Source of the DNA: Escherichia coli
Lineage (GTDB): Bacteria; Pseudomonadota; Gammaproteobacteria; Enterobacterales; Enterobacteriaceae
NCBI RefSeq assembly: GCF_003334385.1
Contig: NZ_QOWN01000012.1
Strand: one strand, 5' to 3'
DNA length: 64,000 nucleotides
Shown: piece by piece, positions 24,693-49,566 of the stretch
Layout: every line of letters starts with the position of its first letter
How positions within the stretch are numbered: position 1 is the stretch's first letter
Program-made: the position numbers and the translations under genes
Notes under the pieces: generated by a model
The model's input: only the letters and a program-made list of their open reading frames with translations
The model's database searches: none
What the model was told of the DNA's origin: nothing

Positions 24693-25589
24693 ATGGACAT
24701 TTTTATTTCGAAAAAGATGCGCAATTTCATTTTATTAGCGCAAACCAATAATATTGCCCGGGCGGCAGAAAAAATCCATATGACGGCTTCGCCATTTGGT
24801 AAAAGCATTGCCGCGCTGGAAGAACAAATTGGCTATACGCTATTTACCCGCAAAGATAATAATATCAGCCTCAATAAAGCCGGACAGGAACTGTATCAAA
24901 AACTGTTCCCGGTTTATCAACGGCTTTCTGCGATTGATAATGAAATCCATAACTCAGGGCGTCGTTCACGAGAAATTGTGATTGGCATAGATAATACTTA
25001 TCCGACAATTATTTTCGATCAGTTGATTAGTCTCGGAGATAAGTATGAAGGCGTGACCGCCCAGCCAGTTGAGTTCAGCGAAAATGGCGTTATCGATAAT
25101 CTTTTTGACCGCCAGTTAGATTTTATTATCTCCCCACAGCATGTATCTGCACGAGTTCAGGAACTGGAAAACCTGACTATCAGTGAACTACCACCGCTGC
25201 GATTAGGCTTTCTCGTTTCTCGCCGTTATGAAGAGCGACAAGAGCAAGAGCTGCTTCAGGAGCTGCCCTGGCTACAAATGCGCTTTCAGAACCGGGCCAA
25301 CTTCGAAGCAATGATTGATGCGAATATGCGACCTTGTGGGATCAATCCAACCATTATTTATCGTCCCTACAGTTTTATGGCCAAAATCAGCGCCGTGGAG
25401 CGCGGACATTTTCTGACGGTGATCCCGCATTTTGCCTGGCGACTGGTGAATCCGGCAACGCTGAAATATTTTGATGCACCGCACAGGCCGATGTATATGC
25501 AGGAATATCTTTATTCAATCAGAAATCATCGTTATACCGCCACGATGCTTCAGCATATTGCTGAAGATCGTGACGGGACGAGTCATTAA
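24693..25589 (+). CDS. ygfI: LysR-family transcriptional regulator
   Basis: ORF 24678..25589; start taken at MDIFISKKMRNFILLAQTNNIARAAEKIHMT (helix-turn-helix); converges on scpC with a 4-bp overlap. Confidence 0.75.
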   Translation: MDIFISKKMRNFILLAQTNNIARAAEKIHMTASPFGKSIAALEEQIGYTLFTRKDNNISLNKAGQELYQKLFPVYQRLSAIDNEIHNSGRRSREIVIGIDNTYPTIIFDQLISLGDKYEGVTAQPVEFSENGVIDNLFDRQLDFIISPQHVSARVQELENLTISELPPLRLGFLVSRRYEERQEQELLQELPWLQMRFQNRANFEAMIDANMRPCGINPTIIYRPYSFMAKISAVERGHFLTVIPHFAWRLVNPATLKYFDAPHRPMYMQEYLYSIRNHRYTATMLQHIAEDRDGTSH

Positions 25590-31218: not shown

Positions 31219-32112
31219 TTAATCCTGACGAAGGACTTTGTGACCATAATCGAGTAACGCATCAGTGACTTTACGCATCATGCGGCTTTCAGGAGCAAAG
31301 CGGTGCCAGTAGAGCATCCGTCGTTGAAATAGCCCAGGCGTTAAGTCAATCAGTTCACCGCTGGCCAGCTCTTTCTCGATTTGCAGGTGCGGGATCATAC
31401 AGCAGGTGGTGCCCTGGCGAGCAAGTTGTACGAACGCTTCTGAAGAATTAACGATATGGCAGGGCACGCTGCCTGGAGGCAGATCGAAGTTTTGCTGCAA
31501 AAAGGCCTGGTGCATATCGTCAAGATGGTCAAACGCGACCACTGGCGCTTTCAGTAATGCCGAACGCGTTACGCCGTTAGGGAAATATTTTTCGGCAAAG
31601 GGTTTTGAGCTGACGAACAGATAGTCGAGCGCACCAAGTTTATCGACAAGACAACTCGGCAGCGCCTGATGTTGAATACTCACCGCGCCGACCACTTCGC
31701 CGCGGCGCAGACGTTCCTGAGTGCGGGTTTCATCTTCTACCTGCAAGTTGAGGCGGATAGGCGAATCAGCCAACACAGGAGCCAGTGCAGGAAGCAACCA
31801 CGTCGCCAGACTGTCGGCGTTGACCGCCAGTGAAAGCAGCAGCGGAGTCGAACCGGTTTGTTCATCGCCCAGCCACTCTTCTTCCAGCAACTCCACCTGG
31901 CGCAGCAGTGCCAGCAGTTTTTGCCCTTGTTCCGTCGGGCGCGGCGGTACGGTACGCACCAACAGCGGCTGCCCGAACATATTTTCCAGTTGCTTAATGC
32001 GCTGTGAGACGGCTGATTGTGTAATGCACAGCTTTTGTGCCGCGCGCTCAAATCCTCGTTCACGTATCACCGCATCCAGTGCCTGTAATGTTCTGTAGTC
32101 CGGGCGTTTCAT
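31219..32112 (-). CDS. argP: LysR-family regulator ArgP (IciA)
   Basis: ORF 31219..32178 minus; N-terminus [28 protein letters not shown] begins 22 codons inside the ORF; 297 aa. Confidence 0.85.
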
Positions 32113-32253
32113 TGCTGTTGTCTGCTCCTGGTAAATGCTTTTTCCTGCACTATGACACAATTTTGTGTCAGGTTGCATATACCGAAGCCGTCGGCGGGTA
32201 ACATTTGTATCCGTGGTTAAAAGCGCAGCTTAAAAGATCAGGGATTTGCGCTA

Positions 32254-32484
32254 ATGCATTTCGCTCAGCGAGTTCGCGCCCTGGTTGTGTTGAATGGCGT
32301 GGCGTTATTGCCTCAATTTGCCTGTAAACAGGGGCTTGCGAACGGTGAACTGGTGCGCCTGTTTGCACCGTGGAGCGGCATACCCAGACCGTTGTATGCT
32401 TTATTTGCGGGGCGAAAGGGGATGCCTGCCATTGCGCGATATTTTATGGATGAGTTAACCACGCGGCTTGCCAACGGGGTCTGA
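32254..32484 (+). pseudogene. yqfE: LysR-family C-terminal remnant
   Basis: 76-codon ORF MHFAQRVRALVVLNGVALLPQFACKQGLANGELVRLFAPW... resembles the C-terminal substrate-binding part of a LysR regulator and has no N-terminal helix-turn-helix; sits between argP and rpiA. Confidence 0.4.
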
Positions 32485-32539
32485 ATCGCTTTTTTTGTAT
32501 ATAATGCGTGTGAAATTTCATACCACAGGCGAAACGATC

Positions 32540-33199
32540 ATGACGCAGGATGAATTGAAAAAAGCAGTAGGATGGGCGGCACTTCAGTATGTTCAGCCCG
32601 GCACCATTGTTGGTGTAGGTACAGGTTCCACCGCCGCACACTTTATTGACGCGCTCGGTACAATGAAAGGCCAGATTGAAGGGGCCGTTTCCAGTTCAGA
32701 TGCTTCCACTGAAAAACTGAAAAGCCTCGGCATTCACGTTTTTGATCTCAACGAAGTCGACAGCCTTGGCATCTACGTTGATGGCGCAGATGAAATCAAC
32801 GGCCACATGCAAATGATCAAAGGCGGCGGCGCGGCGCTGACCCGTGAAAAAATCATTGCTTCGGTTGCAGAAAAATTTATCTGTATTGCAGACGCTTCCA
32901 AGCAGGTTGATATTCTGGGTAAATTCCCGCTGCCAGTAGAAGTTATCCCGATGGCACGTAGTGCAGTGGCGCGTCAGCTGGTGAAACTGGGCGGTCGTCC
33001 GGAATACCGTCAGGGCGTGGTGACCGATAATGGCAACGTGATCCTCGACGTCCACGGCATGGAAATCCTTGACCCGATAGCGATGGAAAACGCCATAAAT
33101 GCGATTCCTGGCGTGGTGACTGTTGGCTTGTTTGCTAACCGTGGCGCGGACGTTGCGCTGATTGGCACACCTGACGGTGTCAAAACCATTGTGAAATGA
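32540..33199 (+). CDS. rpiA: ribose-5-phosphate isomerase A
   Basis: ORF 32468..33199; N-terminus [31 protein letters not shown] begins at 32540; 219 aa. Confidence 0.9.
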
Positions 33200-34875: not shown

Positions 34876-35014
34876 TAAAGCCCTCACCGAAGCGAGGGCT
34901 TGAAGGAGAAGGGTTATGATGCGACTTGTCATCATACTGATTGTACTGTTACTCATAAGTTTCAGCGCTTATTAACAGTCAGTCTCAGGGGAGGAGCAAT
35001 CCTCCCTTACCCTT
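34876..35014 (-). ncRNA. sibC: SibC antisense RNA (type I antitoxin); boundaries approximate
   Basis: Minus-strand promoter with -35 TTGACA (35045-35050), 17-bp spacer and -10 TAATTT (35022-35027); hairpin at 34878-34901 as the probable 3' end; fully covers the ibsC ORF on the opposite strand; about 140 nt as expected for Sib RNAs. Confidence 0.5.
34916..34975 (+). CDS. ibsC: 19-aa hydrophobic type I toxin peptide IbsC
   Basis: Perfect SD AAGGAG 8 nt upstream; tandem ATG ATG; peptide MMRLVIILIVLLLISFSAY; TAA stop; below the ORF-track length cut-off. Confidence 0.65.
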   Translation: MMRLVIILIVLLLISFSAY

Positions 35015-49384: not shown

Positions 49385-49566
49385 CCTTTGTAGGCCTGAT
49401 AAGACGCGCCAGCGTCGCATCAGGCATCGGAGCACAACTGCCGGATTCGGCGTGAACGCCTTATCCGATCTACGGGCCTCGTCCCTGTTGTGATAAAGGC
49501 ATCAAATCCCAGACATGATAAGACGCGCCAGCGTCGCATCAGGCGATAAATGCCTGATGCGATAAA
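49385..49566. repeat. BIME cluster: at least three REP units in alternating orientation
   Basis: REP cores at about 49391-49426, 49441-49472 and 49515-49545 between convergent yqfA and ygfZ. Confidence 0.7.

Follow-up and report, generated by a model that had tools for sequence, protein, structure and literature searches.

The yqfE open reading frame between argP and rpiA of Escherichia coli: a probable deletion scar of a LysR-type regulator gene and its divergent redox cluster

In E. coli K-12 MG1655, a 231-nt feature between rpiA and argP is annotated as the pseudogene yqfE (b2915). UniRef names the exact 76-aa protein "Uncharacterized protein YqfE", and this protein occurs on at least 1000 contigs. 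PGAP labels the same open reading frame (ORF) as a CDS with the product "LysR substrate-binding domain-containing protein" (WP_000545308.1). Wherever PGAP annotates anything at the site in the remnant-type RefSeq genomes inspected, it calls a CDS, and the labels "type 2 periplasmic-binding domain-containing protein" and "hypothetical protein" are also used. In the literature searched, the one mention of this yqfE is as an entry among the genes of a large engineered deletion, and the name otherwise refers to a Bacillus gene; matches to b2915 are unrelated to the locus, one of them being a strain number. As far as we checked, the database entries record neither the chimeric nature of the ORF, which is described below, nor the composition of the intact island that is found at this site in other strains.

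The intact form of the locus is seen in E. coli strains 1504D004 and SMS-3-5 (locus sequences L002 and L004, respectively). In both, a gene encoding a 298-aa LysR-type protein (WP_024189814.1 in 1504D004 and WP_000568123.1 in SMS-3-5) is located between argP and rpiA and is read towards rpiA. Pfam assigns HTH_1 to residues 4-63 and LysR_substrate to residues 88-294 (model positions 2-208). A divergent cluster lies beside the regulator and encodes an FMN-dependent NADH-azoreductase of 209 aa, a DUF1471/BhsA-like protein of 86 aa, and a 441-aa protein labeled "ferredoxin reductase family". The last contains the Ferric_reduct (TM), FAD_binding_8, and NAD_binding_1 domains of Pfam, an NOX/FRE-like architecture. 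When the regulator was compared with NCBIfam, the best-scoring named models were PRK14997 (NF011573), YafC (NF040888), and AaeR (NF007917), with 171.8, 150.9, and 125.5 bits, far under the curated cut-offs of 380, 470, and 425 bits. Since all scores are far below the cut-offs, the protein is an unnamed member of the LysR family and an orthologue of none of PRK14997, YafC, and AaeR.

We analyzed a 64,000-nucleotide stretch of E. coli DNA (contig NZ_QOWN01000012.1 of assembly GCF_003334385.1), hereafter called the window. The listing of its ORFs and the RefSeq annotation of identical sequence both bear out the 76-codon ORF that the first-pass annotation had reported between argP and rpiA. It occupies 32254-32484 on the plus strand, starts with ATG, and encodes a 76-aa product (MHFAQRVRALVVLNGVALLPQF...RLANGV) within an argP-rpiA gap of 427 bp. 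Window positions 32140-32300 are 100% identical to MG1655, and the ORF has the locus and the sequence of MG1655 yqfE (YqfE in UniProt and UniRef) with no difference. The window ORF is the already-known pseudogene yqfE, an ordinary gene remnant. What is added here is incremental: the antisense-azoreductase origin of its N-terminus, the exact position of the junctions, the gene content of the island that was lost, and a census of allelic states. The wider biological importance of the locus is small. The features of the region are as follows, with the basis of each assignment in brackets.

31219-32112, minus strand: argP, intact, given as context (RefSeq annotation of identical sequence)
32113-32173, no strand: argP-proximal flank, comprising the argP leader and upstream region, common to remnant and island genomes (alignment)
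32174-32212, no strand: 39 nt at the left junction with no match in intact island alleles (blastn, flank alignment)
32213-32290, minus strand: 3'-end remnant of the azoreductase gene, residues 182-207 of 209 (BLASTP, tblastn, blastn)
32254-32484, plus strand: yqfE ORF (b2915 in MG1655), 13 non-LysR codons followed by 63 LysR codons and a stop
32291-32292, no strand: right-hand deletion junction (adjacent blastn segments)
32292-32484, plus strand: what is left of the 3' end of the gene for the 298-aa LysR-type regulator, with codons 236-298 and the stop (blastn, protein identity, Pfam)
32485-32539, plus strand: spacer between the yqfE stop and the rpiA start, with TATAAT at 32500-32505 (sequence)
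32540-33199, plus strand: rpiA, intact, given as context (RefSeq annotation of identical sequence)

The descent of the ORF from the LysR family is directly observed at several levels. Residues 15-72 match model positions 151-208 of the 209 positions of LysR_substrate (PF03466) with an E-value of 7.1e-7, and residues 14-76 are identical (63/63) to residues 236-298 of the intact LysR proteins of SMS-3-5 and 1504D004. The SMS-3-5 protein used as a tblastn query matches 32272-32481 with an E-value of 6e-37. In NCBIfam, the 76-aa product gives weak matches to the extreme C-termini of AaeR, PRK14997, and YafC, the same three models that are the best-scoring named ones for the intact regulator. Judged from these alignments, the similarity is not due to chance, and the likeness to LysR C-terminal domains on which the first-pass annotation depended is present. 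Its view that the ORF is only the C-terminal portion of a LysR-type regulator holds for codons 14-76. It fails for codons 1-13, including the ATG, which are antisense azoreductase sequence. The N-terminal DNA-binding domain is indeed missing, as had been stated: a Pfam scan of the 76-aa product detected no HTH_1 (PF00126), and the intact orthologue carries this domain. Out-of-frame LysR fragments, for which an upstream search had been proposed, were absent: no such fragment was detected upstream of 32272, and no piece of the HTH, when 32113-32539 was searched with the intact protein in all frames by tblastn. The upstream sequence consists of 26 azoreductase codons on the opposite strand.

The effector domain of LysR-type regulators has a two-lobed fold of the periplasmic-binding-protein type, in which the chain crosses between the lobes. 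As read from its sequence, the 76-aa product has no winged helix-turn-helix, no linker helix, and about the last quarter of the effector-binding domain. It thus has neither the winged helix-turn-helix nor the complete effector-binding domain of about 209 positions of a functional LysR-type regulator. On the basis of LysR structure, the product should be unable to bind DNA or to fold as a two-lobed ligand-binding unit. The tblastn searches, in which the intact 298-aa LysR protein and the three island proteins were compared with the whole window (word size 2, E-values up to 10), gave two matches within 32113-32539, to LysR residues 229-298 and azoreductase residues 182-207; the other, weak matches fall in other genes. 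One of these is another LysR-type helix-turn-helix at 24726-24890 on the plus strand (31% identity over 55 aa to the intact LysR query, E-value 9e-5), presumably part of a separate LysR family gene in the window.

The remnant of the window and the intact regulator share their last 63 residues, their position, their orientation upstream of rpiA, and the downstream spacer. The window lacks codons 1-235, which encode HTH_1, the linker, and about three quarters of the effector domain, together with the whole divergent cluster. The missing island corresponds to positions 1218-4508 of the SMS-3-5 locus and 905-4193 of the 1504D004 locus. Comparison of the window with the latter by blastn resolved three collinear blocks.

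Window 32038-32165, 1504D004 locus 760-887, 100% identity: argP 5' end and leader
Window 32231-32291, 1504D004 locus 2593-2654, 87% identity: 3' end of the azoreductase gene
Window 32292-32590, 1504D004 locus 4001-4299, 99.3% identity: LysR 3' end, spacer, and rpiA

The right-hand junction is sharp. Compared with 1504D004, 1346 bp are missing here (positions 2655-4000 of its locus), comprising azoreductase codons 1-181, the divergent promoter region, and LysR codons 1-235. The azoreductase remnant to the left of the junction retains 21 of 26 identical residues (81%, E-value 2e-13 in BLASTP), and the rest of this gene was not found in the window by tblastn. The antisense strand of this azoreductase tail supplies the ATG at 32254 and codons 1-13 of yqfE. 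These codons are fused in frame to LysR codons 236-298, which gives the chimeric 76-codon ORF. Downstream of the ORF, the spacer and rpiA (32485-33199) are 99.7% identical to positions 4194-4908 of the 1504D004 locus; since the spacer is near-identical in genomes with the intact regulator, it was not created by the deletion.

The left junction is less simple. On the argP side, 32113-32165 is 100% identical to both 1504D004 and SMS-3-5, and the sequences can be aligned to about 32173. The following 39 nt (32174-32212) replace 1682 bp of SMS-3-5, which contain the NOX-like gene, the DUF1471 gene, and the last two azoreductase codons. This segment is conserved in all remnant alleles, and blastn with a word size of 7 found no match to it in any intact island allele. 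It could be filler DNA or a piece of a lost divergent allele. In total, the gap is 3416 bp in SMS-3-5 and 427 bp in the window, a net loss of 2989 bp (1346 + 1682 - 39). The rearrangement postulated by the first-pass annotation is thus visible as a deletion scar with mapped junctions.

We consider it very probable that yqfE is a non-functional deletion scar, that is, a pseudogene. It has what is expected of one: an intact counterpart at the orthologous position, and a definable lesion by which parts of the parent were lost. In the proposed sequence of events, the ancestral Escherichia chromosome would have carried the 298-aa LysR gene between argP and rpiA, read towards rpiA. In the E. coli ancestor, the opposite-strand cluster beside it would have encoded the FMN azoreductase, the DUF1471/BhsA-like protein, and the 441-aa ferric-reductase-TM/FAD/NAD (NOX-like) flavoprotein. 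The net loss of 2989 bp would then have occurred in the lineage leading to most E. coli, through two deletions or a single complex event; the number and order of these events are what we infer from the present-day junctions. One deletion of 1346 bp may have had its ends at azoreductase codon 181 and LysR codon 235, with the promoter region in between, and the other may have exchanged the 1682 bp of the NOX-like and DUF1471 genes for the 39 nt. An ATG in the antisense azoreductase tail would by chance have been in frame with the 63 surviving LysR codons, giving rise to the 76-codon ORF. The slowly decaying scar is probably kept by its position, flanked by the control regions of two genes that were retained. 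On this reading the ORF would have neither a product nor a function, and the scar is a record that most E. coli have lost a redox island of four genes (LysR, azoreductase, DUF1471, and NOX-like). The evidence argues for a pseudogene flag on the PGAP CDS calls, in agreement with the curated MG1655 record.

The distribution of the alleles was examined across a collection of complete E. coli genomes, and the argP-rpiA gap was matched in all 5426. Allele classes were set by BLAST coverage of junction-spanning probes, with a long asymmetric probe for the 45-bp deletion. Three states account for 5418 of the 5426 genomes.

Uninterrupted 76-codon-type sequence across 32252-32331: 3567 genomes (65.7%)
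Additional 45-bp deletion of codons 21-35: about 1602 genomes (29.5%)
Intact LysR gene: 249 genomes (4.6%)

The intact copy that the first-pass annotation had suggested looking for is thus found at the orthologous site in a minority of E. coli, as well as in other Escherichia. The island is at least 80% covered in 233 of these 249 genomes, and its alleles differ from each other by up to 4.5%. The island is often degraded where it is kept. In 1504D004, the island has frameshifts and the NOX-like gene is split into three CDSs; IS1 insertions are present in several genomes. The three states can serve as a simple lineage marker, with about 4.6% intact, about 66% carrying the 76-codon remnant, and about 30% carrying the 45-bp deletion.

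Further lesions are seen in individual remnant alleles. In O157:H7 strain F8797, the ATG is also changed to TTG and codon 5 from CAG to TAG, in addition to the 45-bp deletion. In strain E09, deletions of 89 bp and 24 bp break the frame, and the ATG is lost. PGAP annotates no CDS at the site in either strain. In a genome-reduced strain, the yqfE region is absent through an engineered deletion. The natural secondary changes (the 45-bp deletion, the start loss and TAG of F8797, and the deletions of E09) are suggestive of the relaxed constraint of a pseudogene and fit neutral decay. The right-hand junction is the same in all aligned remnant alleles except that of E09, where a secondary deletion removed it. 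Across the 61 nt of azoreductase sequence, five of the six other remnants compared show no difference (100% identity), while the divergence from every intact allele is 7-15%. The shared junction and the identity of this piece indicate, at the level of sequence, a single deletion event. The pattern suggests one old deletion whose junction spread, or whose 3' part recombined with intact alleles.

Selection on the remnant was evaluated by pairwise Nei-Gojobori counts over the 63 LysR codons. The window differs from N1420 by four synonymous and no nonsynonymous changes and from E2348/69 by eight synonymous and one nonsynonymous change. These counts resemble purifying selection, yet most of the variants are common to intact alleles, and selection on the remnant itself was rejected as their explanation. 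The variants at 32310, 32316, 32346, 32364, and 32415 are the same as those that segregate among intact alleles, as seen when window positions 32292-32484 were compared with L002, L004, and three further locus sequences (L011, L012, and L014). The best reading of the synonymous excess is that these polymorphisms date from the intact gene, where they arose under selection, and were later either kept or exchanged through recombination. The private changes of remnant alleles have no such clear bias, with about three nonsynonymous and two synonymous changes in BL21 and one and four, respectively, in E2348/69, although these numbers are small. The 90% cluster of YqfE proteins has 528 members, and scattered non-conservative substitutions are found among the 15 members listed.

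The alternative that survives best is that the chimeric 76-aa ORF encodes a functional small protein. Such a protein, a LysR tail without the HTH, might interfere with the oligomerization of another LysR regulator; selection would maintain it in most E. coli, with secondary loss in some lineages. This would explain why the frame is open in two thirds of E. coli, and the locus would be a domesticated gene fragment whose start arose de novo. Several points speak in its favor: the ORF is open in roughly two thirds of complete genomes, the exact protein is found on at least 1000 contigs, synonymous differences outnumber nonsynonymous ones between some of the remnant alleles, and a weak AGGGA is located 8 nt upstream of the yqfE ATG. 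However, most of the synonymous variants are common to intact alleles and so need not postdate the truncation. Fifteen codons in the middle of the ORF are deleted in about 30% of genomes, the O157:H7 allele has lost the ATG and has a stop at codon 5, and many single-residue variants in the 90% cluster are non-conservative. Antisense sequence supplies the start codon and the N-terminus by accident, and of the 209-position domain only about the last 58 positions are left. The consensus scan for promoters and terminators over 32000-32650 on both strands detected no promoter-like or other site, a result that is in itself uninformative on transcription of the ORF. We regard a functional small protein as very unlikely. 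The same low probability is given to a translated fusion with an acquired function, for example one that titrates or caps the C-terminal oligomerization surface of another LysR regulator.

Outside E. coli, the regulator was detected in four more genomes by a scan that took a single genome for each species; its amino acid identity to the SMS-3-5 protein is as follows.

Escherichia sp. MOD1-EC7003: 98%
Escherichia whittamii: 96%
Escherichia sp. E1V33: 94%
Pseudocitrobacter (MAG): 72%

In E. whittamii and Pseudocitrobacter, the ORF listings place the gene between argP and rpiA, and in E1V33 and MOD1-EC7003, blastn finds argP, rpiA, and azoreductase sequence around it. The argP and rpiA genes that flank the regulator in Pseudocitrobacter have 82-83% nucleotide identity, a divergence that fits vertical inheritance of this gene order. 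In E. whittamii, only a 174-aa ORF is found where the 441-aa NOX-like gene would be. Since the intact regulator occupies the same site in a minority of E. coli and in the outgroups, its presence is ancestral and the short form is derived.

A reversed polarity, in which the short form is ancestral and a 3-kb island with the full-length LysR gene was inserted later in a minority of strains, is a shade less probable still than a functional small protein. In its favor, only 4.6% of E. coli have the island, and the divergence of up to 4.5% among its alleles could hint at import from another source. An insertion cannot, however, leave 63 truncated LysR codons and 26 azoreductase codons in a supposedly empty site. 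The regulator and at least part of the cluster are also present at the same site in E. whittamii and, with 72% amino acid identity, in Pseudocitrobacter, where the flanks have diverged comparably. Insertion instead of deletion is rejected on the strength of the two truncated fragments of flanking genes together with the LysR gene at the same site in the outgroups.

The least credible alternative, to the point of being negligible, is that yqfE is a decayed tandem duplicate of argP, which it adjoins and with which it shares the LysR family; it is refuted by the scores of the intact ancestor, which has 28% identity to ArgP over 36 residues (E-value 0.003, BLASTP) and matches the ArgP models of NCBIfam with about 55 bits, far lower than PRK14997, YafC, and AaeR, and by the presence of a distinct intact LysR gene at the site in other genomes. 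The "decayed paralogue" of the first-pass annotation therefore stands at the level of the family, but not as a duplicate of argP, and the truncation occurred by deletion rather than by erosion through frameshifts.

Farther upstream than about -60 from its ATG, argP is preceded by scar DNA in K-12-type strains and by coding DNA in island-bearing strains, and this difference may be relevant when argP regulation is compared between strains. No coordinates of an argP transcription start were found in the iciA/PhoB literature. The left junction, upstream of argP, is spanned by an imperfect inverted repeat of 15+15 nt (32146-32160 and 32163-32177). The core of this repeat is a perfect 8+8 nt, TGACACAA-tt-TTGTGTCA, in five of the seven remnant alleles aligned, whereas E09 and the intact-island alleles have mismatches in the right arm. 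In SMS-3-5 and 1504D004, this arm has the sequence TTGCGTTG, and in the remaining intact-island genomes of the alignment it is imperfect as well; the perfect palindrome is therefore specific to the scar allele. It could be the binding site of a regulator or a product of chance.

No known RNA family of Rfam was detected within 32113-32539. Elsewhere in the window, four families on the minus strand reached the gathering score: 6S RNA (ssrS) at 35699-35882, Sib antitoxin RNA at 34900-35050, naRNA4 at 49393-49470, and ES036 at 21787-21829. The Sib match is SibC, with ibsC annotated nearby, and all four are expected for a K-12-like region.

In E2348/69 and E09, the TATAAT upstream of rpiA is the exact insertion site of an ERIC/IRU-like repeat, at whose far end the TATA motif recurs. 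The repeat spans about 270 bp in E2348/69 (about 690-960 of L005) and is shorter in E09 (from about 690-700 of L008 onward). It contains CGCTCACCCCAGTCACTTACTT, which we take to be the reverse complement of the ERIC2 primer.
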